Source: Escherichia phage BF17. Taken from it: a DNA stretch of 64,000 bases. The stretch is taken from sequence record MW822008.1. One strand, given 5' to 3'. Under the pieces are notes generated by a model. That model did no database searches. It worked only from the letters and a program-made list of their open reading frames with translations, and was not told the origin of the DNA. This document shows, piece after piece, positions 4,739-46,946 of the stretch. A program made the translations under genes and the position numbers. Within the stretch, counting starts at the first letter, position 1, and every line of letters starts with the position of its first letter.

Positions 4739-4760
4739 AATACATTCAATAGGAGAAGTA

Positions 4761-4910
4761 ATGAGTAATCAAAAAATCGACTTAGTAGTAAAACTTCAAG
4801 AGATTCAAGCACTAGCTAAAGAACTTGATGAAAAACGTGCAGCAGCAGTTGATTCACTGTGTGCAACAATTCTGACTGTTTTTGCAGATTACGAAAAGAA
4901 ATCTGATTAA
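4761..4910 (+). CDS. small hypothetical protein
   Basis: ORF track 4668-4910 trimmed to ATG at 4761 after AGGAGA RBS. Confidence 0.5.
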   Translation: MSNQKIDLVVKLQEIQALAKELDEKRAAAVDSLCATILTVFADYEKKSD

Positions 4911-4920
4911 ACATTACTTT

Positions 4921-4950
4921 ATACCCAGTCTAGTACTGGGTATTTTTTTA
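4921..4950 (+). terminator. intrinsic terminator
   Basis: ATACCCAGT / ACTGGGTAT inverted repeat followed by TTTTTTT. Confidence 0.65.
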
Positions 4951-4960
4951 AGGAAATAAA

Positions 4961-5353
4961 ATGACTGAATCAGAACTACATGAAATGATAGATTTCATTT
5001 ATGAAATGATACAAGATAAAAATAACATCAATACAATTATTTCTGGTCCAAGACAAATTGGTAATCAAATGACATATTCTTTATCTTTATGGATAAAACA
5101 GAACTACAAAGTTGATTGTTTGTATTTCCGTCCTGATATTGATGCTTATTATTTTGTCAATCATGATGCATTAATGAAACCAAATAAGCGTCCAGTTGAT
5201 GATACCTTTGTGACACACCCATTTTACCTGGCTGATTCCGAAGAAGATGAGTTTCAAAAGAACACAACGTTAAGCCCAGGTGAAATTTGCATCCCTTACA
5301 CACTAAAAGATAAAATGATTTACATCACAGAAGTTATGAAAACATGCTGGTAA
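4961..5353 (+). CDS. hypothetical protein (EE-x-F-Q motif family)
   Basis: 130-aa ORF; SEEDEFQKNTTL motif. Confidence 0.65.
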   Translation: MTESELHEMIDFIYEMIQDKNNINTIISGPRQIGNQMTYSLSLWIKQNYKVDCLYFRPDIDAYYFVNHDALMKPNKRPVDDTFVTHPFYLADSEEDEFQKNTTLSPGEICIPYTLKDKMIYITEVMKTCW

Positions 5354-5367
5354 GTGCAATGAAACTC

Positions 5368-5376
5368 TGATATAAT
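5368..5376 (+). promoter_or_regulatory. extended -10 promoter element TGaTATAAT
   Basis: TG 5368-5369, TATAAT 5371-5376 upstream of ORF 5402. Confidence 0.4.
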
Positions 5377-5401
5377 ACAAATAATGATAATAGGAGGATA
5401 T

Positions 5402-5620
5402 ATGAAATTTATTAATTTTGATATTTCTAAGGTCAAAGAATTATTTGTAAGAAATGCAGTTTATGATATCATGTTACATAACGGTACTGTACAAGAAGAT
5501 GTTGTATTGTTTTCGTTTGATGGTGAAAATCTCGAAACTATATATAAATTCAGCAACTTAGATGGTGACTTTTGGGAAACCAGTGCTGTTAAAATGTATA
5601 GAATTAAAAAGGAGCATTAA
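5402..5620 (+). CDS. hypothetical protein
   Basis: ORF track 5384-5620 trimmed to ATG after AGGAGGA RBS. Confidence 0.6.
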   Translation: MKFINFDISKVKELFVRNAVYDIMLHNGTVQEDVVLFSFDGENLETIYKFSNLDGDFWETSAVKMYRIKKEH

Positions 5621-32276: not shown

Positions 32277-32468
32277 ATGTTGATTTATCAATGTGATAAC
32301 ATTCGTGTTATGCAGCATCCATACTTACAAATCTTTGATGTGCAGCAGTATATGGAAGGTGATGATCCAAGAACCTATGGTCGTAAGTATGATTACTTCA
32401 CTGTAAAGCAGTGTCGTGACATCAAAGAAGTACGACAATTAGTTCAAGAACTTCAAAATAAAGGTTGA
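32277..32468 (+). CDS. hypothetical protein
   Basis: ORF track 32247-32468 trimmed to ATG 32277 after GAGGA. Confidence 0.5.
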   Translation: MLIYQCDNIRVMQHPYLQIFDVQQYMEGDDPRTYGRKYDYFTVKQCRDIKEVRQLVQELQNKG

Positions 32469-36895: not shown

Positions 36896-38407
36896 ATGAA
36901 ATCTATGGAGAGAAATCAAATGCCAGGTCAATTTACTGATAAAAATGGCGGGAACATGGCAGGTCACTCTGATAAATGGAGTGAACGCAATCGTCGTCAA
37001 AATAGCTACCAAGCAGGACAGGGGTCACGTGGTTCACGTAATCAAGGGACAGGTTTAGCTGGTAAGGCAAACGCAGAAGCAGGTGAAGTTAAGAGTACTG
37101 AGAACATGACTGAGCTAGAAAAGCTACGTTATGTTAACTCATTAGGTCTTCTTAACGCAACACAGAAACAACGCCTTGCTGATATGGAACGTGCTGAGAA
37201 AGAACAAGCAGTTCCTAAAGAAGAACCAAAACCAGAAGCTCCTAAAGCAGCTAACCCTGTTAAAGAGTTATCTGATAACTTAGGTAAGATCTTTGCTAAC
37301 AAACCACAGTTGATTCAGGGTATTGTCAAAGCACTACAGGCAGTTCCTAAAGAAGAACTCAAAGGTAAAGCACAAGCTGTACTTGATGCAATGAAAGGTA
37401 ATAAGAGCACTGAACCCACTGAAGTATTCAGTACTATCATGCGTGCACTTGAAGGTACACACAAAGAAGATTCCAAAGAACCTGAACAGGGTGAAGCAAG
37501 TCTTGATGGTATTCTTAAAACTTTTGATAGTATTGGTAAAGCAGACCGTGCTAATGCCCAGCAAGTCAAGAATGTACTGGCTAAACTTGAAAACCGTTTA
37601 GAAGGTAAAGATGATAAGGTTAAGCTCGTATCAGATGCAGTTAACAGTGCACTTAAATCTTATGTACAAGGTGAGAAAAGTCGCTTCGTAACAGCTATGG
37701 ATGCTGCATTCAACACTATGAAAAAGTATGAAGCAGAACATGGTGAGAAAGTGACACCTGATGGATATCTACTACGTAAAGATGAAGAAGGTGCAGTTGA
37801 ACAGAAAGATGTTGAGCCTGAGCAAGAAGATCTACCTGATACCGTTGATATGGATGGATACATTCATCGTCCTGAGATGGAAGAGTTTGGGTCAGATAAA
37901 GAAGGTTTTGAACATGCAATGGCAGTATATAAAGCATTAGTTAAAAATCCAGATTATGCTAACCGTTTTGTTGACGAGTTTGATAGTGCATGGAATAACT
38001 ACAAAGAGAAAGGTTATGACTTCCCTGCTGAAGCTGCATTCTTTGAACTTGGTAAACTATTAGCTAAACATGGAATTGACGTTGGTTCATCTGATTCTGA
38101 CGGTATGGAAGAAGAACATCTTGAAATGACTGATAAATCAATTCATGAACTTCAAAAGTTAATGATGTGGATATCCGAGATTGGTAAAAAAGCAGGTGCT
38201 GATAGTAAAAGTATCAACAAAAATATTAGTTGGATTAAAGATAATGTTGGTAACAATGCTCGTAAACTTCAAAAGGCTTGGGCTGATTTAGTAAATGGTG
38301 CAGATGATGTTGACATTGAATCACCAGAAGCATATGAGTATGCACTAACTACACTTGATAACTCATTCAAAGAGTACGACCGTGGTGTTGGAAAGGATAA
38401 AAAATAA
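36896..38407 (+). CDS. hypothetical K/E-rich protein (503 aa)
   Basis: Largest plus-strand ORF; alternative start ATG 36920 after GGAG; low-complexity charged sequence. Confidence 0.75.
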   Translation: MKSMERNQMPGQFTDKNGGNMAGHSDKWSERNRRQNSYQAGQGSRGSRNQGTGLAGKANAEAGEVKSTENMTELEKLRYVNSLGLLNATQKQRLADMERAEKEQAVPKEEPKPEAPKAANPVKELSDNLGKIFANKPQLIQGIVKALQAVPKEELKGKAQAVLDAMKGNKSTEPTEVFSTIMRALEGTHKEDSKEPEQGEASLDGILKTFDSIGKADRANAQQVKNVLAKLENRLEGKDDKVKLVSDAVNSALKSYVQGEKSRFVTAMDAAFNTMKKYEAEHGEKVTPDGYLLRKDEEGAVEQKDVEPEQEDLPDTVDMDGYIHRPEMEEFGSDKEGFEHAMAVYKALVKNPDYANRFVDEFDSAWNNYKEKGYDFPAEAAFFELGKLLAKHGIDVGSSDSDGMEEEHLEMTDKSIHELQKLMMWISEIGKKAGADSKSINKNISWIKDNVGNNARKLQKAWADLVNGADDVDIESPEAYEYALTTLDNSFKEYDRGVGKDKK

Positions 38408-38417
38408 ACATTTAAAA

Positions 38418-38449
38418 GGTTGACTTCGGTCAACCTTTTTTTGTAAATA
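38418..38449 (+). promoter_or_regulatory. terminator hairpin with embedded -35; weak -10
   Basis: GGTTGAC-TTCG-GTCAACC + TTTTTTT. Confidence 0.6.
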
Positions 38450-38478
38450 TTGTAGAGGGTTTTATAAGAGGTAATGCA

Positions 38479-38730
38479 ATGTTTAAATATGTTTTATTTT
38501 CACTTGTATTGTTTACTGATATAGTTTATAGTACTGAATACCAGTGCTCCATTGCTAGACAGGAGTTTAGAAACGGTGAGTTCTATACCAAGTCTTACAC
38601 TAGAGGATTGGTACATGACAATAATAAAACTATAGGGTTCAATGCATTTGATAACAAAGATCGATATACGTCTGGAATACTATCTGAACGTAAGTCGGAT
38701 ATACTAGGTATCGAGCGTGAATTCCGGTGA
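38479..38730 (+). CDS. hypothetical secreted protein
   Basis: 83-aa ORF with hydrophobic N-terminus. Confidence 0.5.
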   Translation: MFKYVLFSLVLFTDIVYSTEYQCSIARQEFRNGEFYTKSYTRGLVHDNNKTIGFNAFDNKDRYTSGILSERKSDILGIEREFR

Positions 38731-39091
38731 CACGGTTGCAATGTGTAATGATATTGAGAGTACTAAGAAAGTATATACTAATGGTGAAAATACCTTTAGA
38801 TTCCACAATCTTACTACCAATGAAAGTTTATACTTCTACAACTGTAAAGAGTTCATTAAACCTGCGGATAACTCATGTGATATGCCGGAGCCAAAAGCTG
38901 CTGTATGTGAGGAACCACAATCTAAAGCTGACAAAGATTCAAAAGATAAGAAAGACAAAGCTGACAAATCGGATAAAAAAGAAAACAAAAAGAAAGCTAA
39001 AGATGATAAAGATAAAAAGTCCCCTAAGCCAAATCCATTTGAAAAGCCAAAGAATGAAAAGCCAAAACCAGACATGACATGTAAAATATAA
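38717..39091 (+). CDS. hypothetical protein with K/D-rich low-complexity tail
   Basis: ORF in +1 frame relative to upstream ORF, GTG start (first ATG at 38751); may be fused with 38479 ORF by frameshift. Confidence 0.4.
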   Translation: MNSGDTVAMCNDIESTKKVYTNGENTFRFHNLTTNESLYFYNCKEFIKPADNSCDMPEPKAAVCEEPQSKADKDSKDKKDKADKSDKKENKKKAKDDKDKKSPKPNPFEKPKNEKPKPDMTCKI

Positions 39092-39098
39092 AAGAAAA

Positions 39099-39131
39099 GG
39101 GTTGACTTCGGTCGGCCCTTTTTGCTATAAT
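39099..39131 (+). promoter_or_regulatory. terminator hairpin with embedded -35 (TTGACT) and downstream -10 TATAAT
   Basis: GGGTTGAC-TTCG-GTCGGCCC + TTTTT + GC + TATAAT. Confidence 0.65.
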
Positions 39132-39157
39132 CATTTCATCAACTACTGGAGGCAAAC

Positions 39158-39571
39158 ATGTTAAAAGTTATTTTCCGTTCTATCAGTTCATTACTTCTTA
39201 TGATTAGTTCAGTTTGTTATGCAAATGAAGTATCTGATTTATTTGAGAAGAATTACCCAACTGCACAAGAGATGGGTGTTTTAAAATGCAAGCTAACTTC
39301 GTACAACATCATCGGCAGTAAACTTGTACTGGAACATGAACGTAGTACACCAATCCCTCTAGTAGAAGAAGGTAGTACCTTTAGCTTCAAGTACGGGGTG
39401 AATGTAACATCTGGTGTAATGAACAATGTTGATGCAGAGACTGGTTCAACATGGAGTACTAGCGGTAAAGATGTGTTTCATCGTATGCGTGAAAATGGTA
39501 AACTGAAGTACGTATATGAAAGTTCATTCATGAAACGTGTATTCATTATAAAAAATTGTGTACCAGCATAA
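39158..39571 (+). CDS. hypothetical secreted protein
   Basis: 137-aa ORF with signal peptide; GGAGG RBS. Confidence 0.65.
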   Translation: MLKVIFRSISSLLLMISSVCYANEVSDLFEKNYPTAQEMGVLKCKLTSYNIIGSKLVLEHERSTPIPLVEEGSTFSFKYGVNVTSGVMNNVDAETGSTWSTSGKDVFHRMRENGKLKYVYESSFMKRVFIIKNCVPA

Positions 39572-39582
39572 GGAACAACATC

Positions 39583-39867: not shown

Positions 39868-40206
39868 ATGGAACAACATTTTGAATTAATTAATAAGGTA
39901 TCATTTTATGTAGTATCGTTAATTTGGGTGTATTACATGTTTTGTTACATTATTGCATTCTTCCGATACACGACCTTGTATCAACGCATATACTACGATG
40001 CACCAATTTCATTTTTGATGTTCAGTGCATGTACGTGGGGGATAATTGAAGCACTGGTATGTGGATATAGTACGGACGAATTAAATCTCGTATCGGTGTT
40101 GACATTACTAACAATTGCTACTATGATAGCTACAGTTCCGATATTTTTGCTCTTTAAACTGCTTCATCGCATCGATGAGTGGCGTAATAAAATCCCTGAA
40201 AAGTAA
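39868..40206 (+). CDS. small multi-pass membrane protein, paralog family (cluster A, copy 1)
   Basis: 112-aa; hydrophobic segments; motif F(R/K)Y-TL-x-R-YP and basic C-terminus WRNKIPEK. Confidence 0.65.
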   Translation: MEQHFELINKVSFYVVSLIWVYYMFCYIIAFFRYTTLYQRIYYDAPISFLMFSACTWGIIEALVCGYSTDELNLVSVLTLLTIATMIATVPIFLLFKLLHRIDEWRNKIPEK

Positions 40207-40215
40207 GGATTGATA

Positions 40216-40557
40216 ATGATTTTTTACACTAATGCGTTTGCTTATGCCGTTGCATCAATCTACATTGTGTACTTCTTATTTGGTGGAGTACTGTACTTCT
40301 TTAAGTACAAAACATTGTTTAACCGAATGTATCCAAATCACCCAATTGTAGTAGTACTTTTGATTATTTCTGTTGCTCACATCATTGTAGAAACAATAAT
40401 GGGTATTAGTGCAGTACATTACAGTCTAGGTACTATTGTAATTATTACTATGATCATCGCATACATTTTAGTAATGGGTTCTGGTTTATTTGGGAATGTA
40501 GCAATGAAAATGTATAATCGAATCAAAACATTACGTGATAATCTACCGGAGCGTTGA
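40216..40557 (+). CDS. small multi-pass membrane protein, paralog family (cluster A, copy 2)
   Basis: ORF track 40210 (TTG) trimmed to ATG 40216; C-terminus LRDNLPER. Confidence 0.65.
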   Translation: MIFYTNAFAYAVASIYIVYFLFGGVLYFFKYKTLFNRMYPNHPIVVVLLIISVAHIIVETIMGISAVHYSLGTIVIITMIIAYILVMGSGLFGNVAMKMYNRIKTLRDNLPER

Positions 40558-40558
40558 G

Positions 40559-40903
40559 ATGTATAATTTAAATTTAATATCATATATCATAACAACACTG
40601 TTTACTTTCTATGTCTTTGTTGGTATACTCCTACTGTACTTTAAATTTTATAAACTCTTTGACCGTTTATATCCATCATTGAAACATGAATTCTTATTGG
40701 TGATGTACATCTGTTTAACGTGTATGTCTACATTTTTCACTGTATTTGATGGTATCATCGGTATTAAAGCTGAAGATCCAAATGGGAGTACACTTGTTGC
40801 CTTTATTCTGGTAGGATTCTTCGGTACTTATATCACTTTCATTTCAACATGGTCTGTGGTTGATTATCTCATTAGATTACGAGATAAAATGCCAAATCGA
40901 TAG
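40559..40903 (+). CDS. small multi-pass membrane protein, paralog family (cluster A, copy 3)
   Basis: ORF track 40535 trimmed to ATG 40559; C-terminus LRDKMPNR. Confidence 0.65.
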   Translation: MYNLNLISYIITTLFTFYVFVGILLLYFKFYKLFDRLYPSLKHEFLLVMYICLTCMSTFFTVFDGIIGIKAEDPNGSTLVAFILVGFFGTYITFISTWSVVDYLIRLRDKMPNR

Positions 40904-41549: not shown

Positions 41550-41577
41550 TTGACAAACTCATTCAGTACTGTATAAT
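41550..41577 (+). promoter_or_regulatory. sigma70-like promoter TTGACA-N16-TATAAT
   Basis: ...TTCAGTACTGTATAATGTTTAT family. Confidence 0.6.
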
Positions 41578-41624: not shown

Positions 41625-42179
41625 ATGATTACTTTTAAGAAAACTGCTAACCACATCCATGAGATCTACATTAACGGTCACAAAGCTGGCCTTCTTCGTT
41701 TACTCGCCCATCATCCGAATATTACCGTATCTGATAATGAACCTAAAGATTGGCGTGTATTTTTCTTTGGAAAGTACAGTGATTTTCAAGTATCAAACCT
41801 GAAGAACATTCGTTCAGTATGCACGTTAACTGAAATTAAAGAAAAGTTAACCAAAGCATTGAAAACTAATCCAGATAGTGTTCTTCCACCTGATAACTTT
41901 GTAGAGAAAGGATATGCCTTAGCTCATTTCAAAGATGGTACTATTCAATCTATCAGTACTGAATATGAATATCAATGGACTGAGTACTTCACTTATGGAT
42001 CGCGTAATACATTGATGGCTTCACGTAGTAAATTGGAAGAAGTACTGACTCGTATGAATGAACGCGAGCGTCAATTTTATGACAAACCAGAAATGTGGAG
42101 TTCAACTTACATTGACCGTATTGACTATGTTATTATGACTCCAATCTTTGACACTGCTTACTATGATTCTTTGAAATAA
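41625..42179 (+). CDS. hypothetical protein
   Basis: 184-aa ORF, GAGGAA RBS. Confidence 0.65.
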   Translation: MITFKKTANHIHEIYINGHKAGLLRLLAHHPNITVSDNEPKDWRVFFFGKYSDFQVSNLKNIRSVCTLTEIKEKLTKALKTNPDSVLPPDNFVEKGYALAHFKDGTIQSISTEYEYQWTEYFTYGSRNTLMASRSKLEEVLTRMNERERQFYDKPEMWSSTYIDRIDYVIMTPIFDTAYYDSLK

Positions 42180-42395
42180 GGATAACTTATATGAAACTAC
42201 GTACTCGTAATCGACTGATGGATGCACTGTACCATGAACAGCTTTCACTGAATGAAGTGAAGCGTCAGTTAATGTACACATATCTGTTACCCGCTCGCAT
42301 TGCAAAACAACGTGCTAAAGAATTGCTGAAAGAAGCAATCGAGTACTGGGAATCTGATTCGTACTAATTGTCACGTTAATTAAGTGAGGCGATAA

Positions 42396-42647
42396 ATGAA
42401 AATTTTATTAGTTCTAATACTACTAATTGTTTTACCATTTACGTTAGTATCTCCTGAACTTGCATGGAATGTGTTTGTGTACTTACTATGTACTATTGTA
42501 GTAAATGGTATCTTGTTCTTAGTTCTATTCATAAATGGAATAGGACACGGTGGAGGATGGACCAGTACTGCTGATATTGTACATAAAACCACTATGTCTT
42601 TATTTGTAGTGTGGAATTTATTCTGGACTTGGTTTGTGTTCTTCTAA
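42396..42647 (+). CDS. small membrane protein
   Basis: 83-aa ORF, hydrophobic. Confidence 0.55.
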   Translation: MKILLVLILLIVLPFTLVSPELAWNVFVYLLCTIVVNGILFLVLFINGIGHGGGWTSTADIVHKTTMSLFVVWNLFWTWFVFF

Positions 42648-42657
42648 TTAAAAAAAT

Positions 42658-43029
42658 ATGAATATAGATTTGAAAGGTGCAACACGAACTGTCATACTCA
42701 TTGGGGAATATGCTATCAAGATTCCAACCTTTAAAAGTTGGAAGCTATTCTTAACAGGGATGATAGCTAACCTCAATGAACGTTCGTGGATGCAGTACTC
42801 CAAGCGTAGTAATAGTGGTATCTGCCCTACGTTGTGGTCATCATGTACTGGACTAGTAACTGTACAGAAACGTTGTAAGCCAGTGCAACATAGGGGTTTA
42901 TTTTGGCTGGAGTTGTGTGCTTTAGCATTGAATTCAGAGTTAAGTGCTGACTTCTTTTATTCAGATGCGAAGCCAGAAAACTTTGGGTATCTGTGTGGTA
43001 AGTTGGTTAAACTTGATTATGGAGATTAA
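42658..43029 (+). CDS. hypothetical protein with protein-kinase-like catalytic motifs
   Basis: AIK near N-terminus, then DAKPENFG (HRDLKPEN-like) and LDYGD (DFG-like) with kinase-like spacing; only 123 aa. Confidence 0.45.
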   Translation: MNIDLKGATRTVILIGEYAIKIPTFKSWKLFLTGMIANLNERSWMQYSKRSNSGICPTLWSSCTGLVTVQKRCKPVQHRGLFWLELCALALNSELSADFFYSDAKPENFGYLCGKLVKLDYGD

Positions 43030-43030
43030 T

Positions 43031-43303
43031 ATGTACGCACTGTATAATAAAGAAAAGAAACGATTTGCTAAGGTTGAAATTTCGATTGATACATTTGACA
43101 TGTTGGAGTACTGTATTGTAACGGACTTATATGCTAACTTGTATTACGTTCTTGATGACGTATCAGTACTGCAACGATTGCTTGAGAATTCCAAAAGTCA
43201 ATGCCAGGGCATCCATGATGGTTCATCTTATGAAACACCTGAGTGTTCCTACGGCTATCTGGACGGGTATGAGATTGTGAAGTTGGGTATTGTTGGATGC
43301 TGA
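43031..43303 (+). CDS. hypothetical protein
   Basis: ORF track 42944-43303 trimmed to ATG 43031 after GGAG. Confidence 0.5.
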   Translation: MYALYNKEKKRFAKVEISIDTFDMLEYCIVTDLYANLYYVLDDVSVLQRLLENSKSQCQGIHDGSSYETPECSYGYLDGYEIVKLGIVGC

Positions 43304-43307
43304 AACA

Positions 43308-43577
43308 ATGACCAATGATGAATTCATGGAATTTATAAAAAATATACAAAGTTCAAAAACTGGAGAAGAAAAAGAAACATATAAATTTAAAAGTTCAATA
43401 ATACTTATGAAAATGAAATTGATTTCTCATACTTTTAATGAGAAGTATGATTTTATCTTTGTGAACAGTGACTACAATGATTTAGTTTATAATATAAATG
43501 TTTTGTGGGAAGAAGAACTACAAAGCAAAATACATACAGTACGAAAACCATTAAAAAATCCTTTCAAAACGGGTTGA
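43308..43577 (+). CDS. hypothetical protein
   Basis: ORF track 43290-43577 trimmed to internal ATG. Confidence 0.45.
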   Translation: MTNDEFMEFIKNIQSSKTGEEKETYKFKSSIILMKMKLISHTFNEKYDFIFVNSDYNDLVYNINVLWEEELQSKIHTVRKPLKNPFKTG

Positions 43578-43603
43578 CTTCGGTCAGCCCTTTTTGCTAT
43601 AAT
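43571..43603 (+). promoter_or_regulatory. terminator hairpin with embedded -35 (TTGACT) and downstream -10 TATAAT
   Basis: GGGTTGACTTCGGTCAGCCCTTTTTGCTATAATCATTTCATCAA consensus copy. Confidence 0.7.
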
Positions 43604-43631
43604 CATTTCATCAAGACGAGAGGATGAATAC

Positions 43632-44147
43632 ATGACACGCATTAACTTAGTACACGTTAAAGAACTTGCTGACCAACATCTGATGGCTGAATATCGTGAA
43701 CTCCCACGTGTGTTTGGTGCTGTACAAAAACATGTTCAAGCACGTAAGCGAGTCCGTGATTTCAAAATTAACAGTACTTACCTGTTAGGTTCAGGTCATG
43801 TAACATTCTTCTACAACAAGTTATTGTACTTACAGAAGCGTCATATTGATATTGTTAACGAATGTTTGCGTCGTGGTATGAAGATTCAAAACACTGAAGT
43901 AAACGACATTAGCGGATTCCCTGCTGAGTTTTGTAATGACTACGTACCATCGGAGTCAGAGATTAAAATGTCTCGTGAGCGTTTGATTGAGAAGATACAG
44001 ATGAAGCCTATGTGGTATAAATTTACTGACGTTGAACGCCCACAGTACGTTAAAGATATGCAGGACGTAAGTGGTGATATAGAATCTAGTACTGATATGT
44101 TCGACGAAATTGAAGAACAAATCAAAGATGAAATGAATAATTATTAA
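43632..44147 (+). CDS. denV: pyrimidine dimer DNA glycosylase / endonuclease V
   Basis: N-terminus [31 protein letters not shown]...RVRDFKI...[10 protein letters not shown] closely matches T4 endonuclease V as I recall it, including Thr2 and Glu23. Confidence 0.9.
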
Positions 44148-44153
44148 AGGAAA

Positions 44154-44186
44154 GGGTTGACTTCGGTCAGCCCTTTTTGCTATAAT
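44154..44186 (+). promoter_or_regulatory. terminator hairpin with embedded -35 and downstream -10
   Basis: Consensus copy of the GGGTTGACTTCGGTCAGCCC cassette. Confidence 0.7.
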
Positions 44187-44212
44187 CATTTTATCAACTT
44201 AAGAGGTAACAC

Positions 44213-46913: not shown

Positions 46914-46946
46914 GGGTTGACTTCGGTCAGCCCTTTTTGCTATAAT
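46914..46946 (+). promoter_or_regulatory. terminator hairpin with embedded -35 and downstream -10
   Basis: Consensus copy of the cassette. Confidence 0.7.

Follow-up and report, generated by a model that had tools for sequence, protein, structure and literature searches.

A 123-amino acid (aa) open reading frame (ORF) of Escherichia phage BF17 encodes a kinase core whose chain ends at the DFG motif. It belongs to a large family of such phage proteins, an extreme form of a known kinase fold for which catalytic activity is predicted. The ORF runs on the plus strand from an ATG at 42658 to a TAA at 43027-43029 (372 nucleotides (nt)) of a 64,000-nt stretch of sequence record MW822008.1, which is referred to as the window from here on, and we call it the mini-kinase gene. 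Our preferred interpretation, to which we give a probability of roughly 0.5, is that the product works on its own as a minimal module of protein-kinase type, made up of Hanks subdomains I-VII and acting in the way proposed below. An earlier note on this DNA, which gave the coordinates and sequence of the ORF exactly, had pointed to kinase-like motifs in its translation.

The window is part of an Asteriusvirus genome (a jumbo coliphage of the 121Q/PBECO4/G17 type), and positions 42000-44200 are 98.5% identical to Ecwhy_1 and 96% identical to 121Q. The mini-kinase gene (42658-43029, plus strand) is present in one copy in the window, is the ortholog of 121Q gp215 and G17_00098, and has a product of 13.9 kDa predicted mass that is identical to QXN76544.1 of phage BF17. 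Every related genome carries it as a 372-nt hypothetical gene (for example 121Q gp215 and Ecwhy1_544). It is intact in more than 30 Asteriusvirus genomes, with a ratio of nonsynonymous to synonymous substitution rates (dN/dS) of 0.22-0.29 against close orthologs, and the few amino acid replacements all fall outside the motifs. Positions 42658-43029 are a real gene, neither a chance assembly of motifs nor a decayed one, and readings as chance or as a fragment are essentially excluded.

The kinase-like motifs were examined for conservation in an alignment of the best 160 relatives, with mutual identity of at most about 50%, and invariant columns were identified in a separate MAFFT alignment of 150 divergent members. 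Only three columns are invariant in the latter: K21, E41 and D120 (99%, 99% and 100% in the 160 relatives). K21 lies in A19-I20-K21 (42712-42720, plus strand, as are all the motifs that follow), the equivalent of the beta3 “VAIK” lysine, and falls in a strand of the structural model (residues 18-23). E41 closes N38-L-N-E41 (42769-42780), where N38 is conserved in 98%, and corresponds to the Glu of the alphaC helix, in a helix of the model spanning residues 28-43. D120 opens D120-Y-G122 (43015-43023), the equivalent of the Mg-binding DFG motif, with Y121 at 91% and G122 at 88%, which aligns to the DFG of both TTK and PKA. Judged from the sequence, K21, E41 and D120 correspond to the three residues (Lys, Glu and Asp) by which protein kinases position ATP and Mg. 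Between the second and third of these is the catalytic loop D103-A-K-P-E-N-F-G110 (42964-42987), of the Ser/Thr-kinase type D-x-K-P-E-N, which aligns to SDLKPANF of TTK and to D166-N171 of PKA; G110 is conserved in 99% and K105 in 86%. Other highly conserved positions are P23 (98%), G34 (99%) and G65 (96%). The spacing is close to that of PKA, with 17 residues from D103 to D120 vs 18 (D166-D184), and 20 from K21 to E41 vs 19 (K72-E91). The claim of the earlier note that AIK, DAKPENFG and LDYGD occur at kinase-like spacing was therefore confirmed for K21, D103-G110 and D120, and E41 can be added to its list, together with a possible equivalent of the Gly-rich loop, G7-A-T-R-T-V12 (42676-42693). 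The latter forms the beta1-beta2 hairpin in the model, with G7 conserved in 97%, T9 in 82%, R10 in 98% and V12 in 91%. When compared with GxGxxGxV, G7 and V12 are present at the right five-residue spacing, the other glycines are replaced, and R10 is family-specific. From the spacing, G7 and V12 would be the second Gly and the adenine-contacting Val of GxGxxGxV, i.e. G52 and V57 of PKA.

The catalytic loop is not uniform across the family. Position 103 is D in 63% and E in 36% of the 160 relatives (acidic in 99%), and position 108 is N in 67% and S in 31%. The two positions co-vary, with D and N together in 82 members and E and S together in 48, as would be expected for two residues lining one metal or phosphate site. 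All four of K21, E41, an acid at 103 and D120 are retained in 156 of the 160.

An AlphaFold2 model built from a 13-sequence alignment has a mean predicted local distance difference test score (pLDDT) of 90.2 and a predicted template modelling score (pTM) of 0.80. Its N-lobe consists of strands 2-4, 10-15 and 18-23, helix 28-43 and strands 58-61 and 68-71, with pLDDT above 90. This is followed by a helix (79-92), a short helix, the D103-N108 loop and a beta-hairpin (109-118), the strands of which (109-112 and 115-118, the beta7-beta8 hairpin of the model) lead directly into the terminal D120-Y-G. The modelled topology is that of a protein kinase from beta1 through the DFG motif. In a Foldseek search of the PDB there were 1,775 matches, and all 50 of the 50 matches listed are protein-kinase-like, mostly TTK/MPS1 but also Legionella Lpg2603, CK2 and MSMEG_1954, with probabilities of about 1.0 and query-normalised TM scores of 0.5-0.65. 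A fold search of BFVD returned family members first, followed by viral Ser/Thr kinases. We are highly confident that the fold is kinase-like. The model, the fold searches and the register of the TTK and PKA alignments all agree with the earlier suggestion of a minimal or truncated kinase-like fold with its motifs at catalytic positions.

Sequence comparisons place the motifs in the same register at lower significance. A 150-member profile against the PDB aligned “DaKPeNFGy...lVkiDYG” with “SDLKPANFLI...LKLIDFG” of TTK at a sub-threshold expectation value (E) of 0.05, and hhalign of the family against PKA (a sequence checked against 1ATP) placed D103, K105, P106, E107, N108 and D120 on D166, K168, P169, E170, N171 and D184, also sub-threshold (E=0.18). 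Among the 150 members there were sub-threshold Pfam matches to ABC1 (E=4e-4) and to FAM69 PIP49_C (E=1e-3), both on the segment from catalytic loop to DFG, and no significant match to curated kinase models (Pfam Pkinase, RIO1, APH, Kdo, ABC1 and others). The single protein had no match in sequence searches of Pfam, NCBIfam, PADLOC and the PDB, and a 13-member profile had none in the PDB.

The protein belongs to PHROG 4301, which has no functional annotation (E=3.5e-42; residues 2-122 match 40-167 of the 225 profile positions). In a word-indexed search 13 relatives turned up, with lengths of 118-127 aa. An exhaustive profile search gave representatives of at least 1,201 clusters at E<=1e-3, of which 643 are at E<=1e-10, and almost all are 110-135 aa long; a scan of genome contigs with a family pattern returned no relatives. 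In the BF17 protein the sequence L119-D120-Y-G-D123 (43012-43026) ends one residue past G122 and three past D120, and the activation segment with APE, alphaF and alphaG-I (subdomains VIII-XI) are absent. As the earlier note had remarked, translation stops right after the DFG-like motif, and the same is true of the family: the C-terminus lies two to three residues past D120 in 120 of the 160 relatives (75%). Longer relatives are few (OBP_197, 273 aa; Kc263 gp027, 267 aa; RP31 ORF183, 209 aa; P0119, 257 aa), and their C-terminal tails have no Pfam match and, when compared with each other, do not line up in the manner of a kinase C-lobe.

We propose that the module is made up of a five-stranded N-lobe with K21 and E41, an alphaE-equivalent helix, the D103-x-K105-P-E-N108 loop, the beta7-beta8 hairpin and D120-Y-G. 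Mg-ATP would be held between the beta-sheet, with its G7/V12 lid and K21-E41, and a platform of D103-N108 and D120, and the gamma-phosphate would be passed on; the most probable acceptors are Ser/Thr (or Tyr) residues in proteins of the host or the phage. Transcription would be early, by host sigma-70 RNA polymerase from a promoter at 41550, and the mobile accessory character of the gene (see below) would fit a role in host takeover or counter-defence. Of these elements, binding of a nucleotide (ATP) is likely, phosphotransfer is somewhat favoured, and action on protein substrates with an anti-host or counter-defence role is put forward tentatively. Protein substrates are preferred because D-x-K-P-E-N is the signature of Ser/Thr protein kinases and not the Brenner motif of small-molecule kinases, which in APH and choline kinases reads H-x-D-x-x-x-x-N. 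Given that the whole peptide-binding apparatus is missing, substrates would have to be recognised through a surface other than that of the absent C-lobe, through self-association or through a bound partner, comparable to E2~ubiquitin for OspG.

OspG of Shigella and NleH1/2 of enteropathogenic and enterohaemorrhagic E. coli (EPEC/EHEC) are the precedent for such an arrangement, since they too have a kinase core without subdomains VIII-XI. E2~Ub activates OspG, which phosphorylates both itself and CAND1 (PMC12756638). The mini-kinase is about 50 aa shorter than OspG and NleH, its structure-based identity to OspG is about 15%, and OspG is a type III secreted effector that acts in eukaryotic cells; given the phage and bacterial-cytoplasm context, ubiquitin binding and secretion by the phage mini-kinase are implausible. 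HopBF1, a plant-pathogen effector described as a “minimal protein kinase” that mimics an HSP90 client, is likewise about 50 residues longer, has a residual C-lobe and is 10% identical.

A number of observations count against an active minimal protein kinase. Only one Gly of GxGxxG is kept in the 123 residues, the His and Arg of HRD are absent, with Y-S-D103 in their place, and about one third of the family has Glu and Ser at the catalytic Asp and Asn positions. The alphaF helix is missing, and in every characterised kinase alphaF anchors the catalytic and regulatory spines and is seen as the hub of the C-lobe. OspG keeps helices after the DFG motif (the 4q5h chain has 169 residues vs 123 in the mini-kinase). 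From secondary structure and spacing in the model, K21 and E41 are predicted to form an ion pair, and D103, N108 and D120 to lie close together. None of the sequence-only searches was significant against any kinase, the best values being those for the PDB profile (E=0.05) and for PKA in hhalign (E=0.18). By Pfam, the long members carry no fused domain that points to a substrate or role, PADLOC has no defence-system match for the 123-aa protein, and when all genes up to 4 kb away were clustered for 20 independent locus groups, no conserved partner was found, the sole recurring neighbour being a DUF4326-like ORF in three of the 20.

One alternative is that the protein is an active phosphotransferase for a non-protein substrate, be it a small molecule, a nucleotide or a nucleic acid, comparable to aminoglycoside and choline kinases or to the archaeal RNA 2'-O-kinase Ark1, whose targets may include RNA or tRNA, signalling nucleotides or compounds resembling antibiotics. 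The model lacks all the parts with which a kinase normally binds a peptide substrate, the family is basic (median isoelectric point 9.0, median net charge +3.7), and the gene is found upstream of rnlB in JS10, beside a tRNA cluster in PhiZZ30 and elsewhere near genes for DNA ligase or polymerase. However, such nucleic-acid-enzyme neighbours are not conserved over the 20 locus groups, and the D-x-K-P-E-N loop, both from what is known of kinase families and from the TTK and PKA alignments, is that of Ser/Thr protein kinases. We consider this alternative unlikely.

It is a little less probable still that the protein binds nucleotide without catalysis, as a pseudokinase-like switch or a sponge, acting by sequestration or as the allosteric partner of a host protein. 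Such a role would suit a small protein without the alphaF scaffold that is thought necessary for an active kinase, and one in which Glu takes the place of the catalytic Asp in 36% of members and Ser that of the catalytic Asn in 31%; sequestration of signalling nucleotides by small phage proteins is, moreover, a known counter-defence strategy. Against this, the residues that pseudokinases usually lose are the best conserved of the family (K21 99%, E41 99%, the acid at 103 99%, K105 86%, D120 100%), and the coupled change from D/N to E/S looks like the upkeep of a metal or phosphate site, not its decay. Since the catalytic residues are the most conserved positions, the idea of a pseudokinase, which the earlier note had also raised, appears unlikely. 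The catalytic activity of OspG, which does without subdomains VIII-XI (PMC12756638), argues in the same direction.

That the ORF is a fragment of a longer kinase, either split from the ORF at 43031-43303, as had been suggested, and made whole by a frameshift or by joining of the two products, or else a decaying pseudogene, is a reading with very little left to recommend it and is largely refuted: the downstream ATG lies one base past the mini-kinase stop, the PHROG 4301 profile has 225 positions of which 40-167 are covered and some relatives reach 205-273 aa, but an end two to three residues past the DFG Asp is the norm among divergent relatives, the tails of the long relatives are not a kinase C-lobe, the gene is intact and under constraint in Asteriusvirus, and the ORFs that follow it in other phage groups are unrelated or absent. 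These 3' ORFs (75, 80, 85, 97 and 102 aa, an RNA ligase in JS10 and a “hydrolase” in PAKlein3) are mutually dissimilar. In the lambdoid prophages of Salmonella it has no companion between the lysis gene Rz and Nu1, the gene for the small terminase; Nu1 is the next called gene, at a distance of about 400 nt, and an ORF scan of this gap finds only short ORFs of 48-58 aa.

Returning to the preferred reading of a minimal protein-kinase-like module, the phage kinase that invites comparison is T7 gp0.7 (T7K, PHROG 2828), also an early phage-encoded protein of kinase fold. T7K phosphorylates host proteins pervasively and disarms defence systems (PMC13645617), and by analogy it would indicate what an early phage kinase can do. 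The two differ in that T7K has 359 aa with a DNA-binding tail, has DPV at 213-215 vs DYG at 120-122 in the mini-kinase, and falls in another PHROG. T7K and the mini-kinase family are not related by hhalign (E 0.86, probability 0.04%, on an irrelevant segment) and HMMER gives no match between them. The possibility that the mini-kinase is the T7K homologue of the G17 jumbophage described in PMC13645617 was rejected, as that is a separate 213-aa gene ten genes upstream; the two genes are UES1_179 (T7K homologue) and UES1_189 (mini-kinase) in UE-S1, and WNN14432.1 and WNN14422.1, respectively, in Sharanji. No homologue of UES1_179 was found in the 64-kb window. The interval of UE-S1 that carries it (positions 4745-5582 of locus L037) matches 38368-39579 of the window, where the flanks are conserved and unrelated ORFs of 83, 124 and 137 aa are found, which on comparison of the sequences is a gene-cassette replacement at the locus of the T7K-like kinase.

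The atypical RIO and Bud32 kinases and the archaeal RNA kinase Ark1 are, unlike the mini-kinase, 173-270 residues long and continue with helices past the metal-binding loop. The signatures of their catalytic loops are not that of the mini-kinase, and sequence and profile searches against the PDB gave no match between them and it.

Homologues occupy accessory regions in a wide variety of phages. Among T4-like phages, JS10 has the gene directly upstream of rnlB, and PhiZZ30 and the BASEL phage PaulHMueller (MZ501098.1, 146967-147344) have it between ipI and tRNA genes. Further homologues are found in Vequintavirinae (A5-4), Felixounavirus (SWJM-02), Drexlerviridae (GaoY1-9D), phi G17 and Moonfish, as well as in jumbo phages of Aeromonas, Erwinia, Ralstonia and Pseudomonas, PaMx11-like siphoviruses and Salmonella prophages. 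For the Pseudomonas siphovirus members, the idea of a kinase acting on 5-hydroxymethyldeoxyuridine (5-hmdU) DNA was considered, and no support was found. Copies in unrelated coliphages, namely the Tequatrovirus PhiZZ30 (locus L030, 3001-3381), A5-4 (locus L031, 2956-3381), phi G17, Moonfish and GaoY1-9D, are 69-79% identical to one another, and the Asteriusvirus copy has only about 41% identity to them. The presence of such copies in unrelated coliphage families indicates recent horizontal transfer among E. coli phages. From these comparisons, the mini-kinase appears to behave as a mobile accessory gene moving between unrelated phages, which is typical of host-interaction genes.

In BF17 the mini-kinase gene is the fourth of six tightly packed plus strand ORFs (41625-43577). 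The predicted unit is headed by a sigma-70 consensus promoter, TTGACA-16-TATAAT (41550-41577, plus strand), which matches the consensus at 12 of 12 positions. Three ORFs precede the mini-kinase gene (41625-42647, plus strand), encoding 184 aa (PHROG 22186), 58 aa and an 83-aa membrane protein, and their order is kept in Ecwhy_1, 121Q and UE-S1. The two that follow (43031-43577, plus strand; 90 aa, PHROG 8563, and 95 aa) are Asteriusvirus-specific and are not partners conserved with the family. The unit ends at a hairpin and T-run terminator with a stem that contains the -35 element of the promoter that follows, so that the element also starts denV (43571-43603, plus strand; the terminator itself is 43571-43590). 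The last ORF of the unit (43290-43577, plus strand, 95 aa) has a weak sub-threshold match to colicin/pyocin immunity proteins in Pfam (E=0.0047) and, overlapping the region of that match, a sub-threshold one to the PADLOC candidate defence family HEC-09 (E=0.0018).

The window contains 23 strong sites of sigma-70 type (TTGAC-N17-19-TATAAT), that at 41550 included, vs 0.61 expected by chance, all on the plus strand between 1038 and 46946, and many share an extended AGTACTGTATAAT -10 region. This array on one strand therefore suggests a dense series of promoters for host RNA polymerase, which would mean early genes, and from its sequence the initial ~47 kb of the window has the look of a single large array of early mini-operons transcribed by the host enzyme. 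Promoter function of these sites, and hence early expression of the mini-kinase, is what the consensus scan would predict. A 33-nt module, GGGTTGACTTCGGTCAGCCCTTTTTGCTATAAT, occurs four times (39099-39131, 43571-43603, 44154-44186 and 46914-46946), with variants near 32465 and 36059. It consists of a GC hairpin and T-run, with -35 TTGACT in the stem, followed by TG-TATAAT, and is thus a fused terminator and promoter. Two copies of it flank denV (43632-44147, plus strand), and in a 56-nt version the copies at 43568 and 44151 share 89% identity.

The denV product is a pyrimidine-dimer glycosylase of the DenV type (endonuclease V) of 171 aa. Pfam and PHROG profiles cover its residues 1-133, and the tail of about 38 residues outside them is acidic. 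Upstream of the unit with the mini-kinase gene, three tandem paralogous plus strand ORFs (39868-40206, 40210-40557 and 40535-40903) encode multi-pass membrane proteins of 112-122 aa that are 26-29% identical (E of 5e-12 and 5e-10) and have a basic tail, R/K-x-x-(I/L/M)-P-E/N-K/R.

In GenBank, a few members (those of pEa_SNUABM_5, Kc263, AH04 and PAKlein3) are labelled “serine/threonine kinase” or “STE family protein kinase catalytic domain”, from which it follows that the resemblance has already been picked up by automatic annotation. Our literature searches found no paper describing a family of DFG-terminated mini-kinases or its truncation. The paper on Sharanji lists two kinases and reports WNN14432.1 as a T7K homologue, and the mini-kinase is not among the two (PMC11895373). 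A Nature study that looked for kinases in the BASEL phages found only T7K homologues and Doc (PMC13645617), and a structure-based survey of kinase-like domains dropped proteins of less than 150 aa (bioRxiv 10.64898/2026.09.18.752743).

A further proposal, which we rate as less likely than not, is that no smaller autonomous catalytic module of a kinase is known than this family (~120 residues, subdomains I-VII, without activation segment and alphaF-alphaI), and that it is active and used early by many phage lineages on host or defence proteins. If it is true, counts of phage kinases would be too low because the family went unrecognised, as in the BASEL survey with its T7K homologues and Doc only, and T7 gp0.7 would be joined by a second class of early phage kinases, widespread and spread by horizontal transfer. 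The family is found in T4-like, rV5-like, Felix O1-like, T1-like and jumbo phages as well as Salmonella prophages, and goes unseen by Pfam, NCBIfam and structure-mining pipelines that drop proteins of less than 150 aa. The homologue in the BASEL phage PaulHMueller, which grows on E. coli K-12, makes the question directly testable. If active, a family that keeps the residues for ATP, Mg and phosphotransfer and drops everything after the DFG motif would define the true minimal catalytic core of the kinase fold, and would provide a 14-kDa scaffold for engineering.
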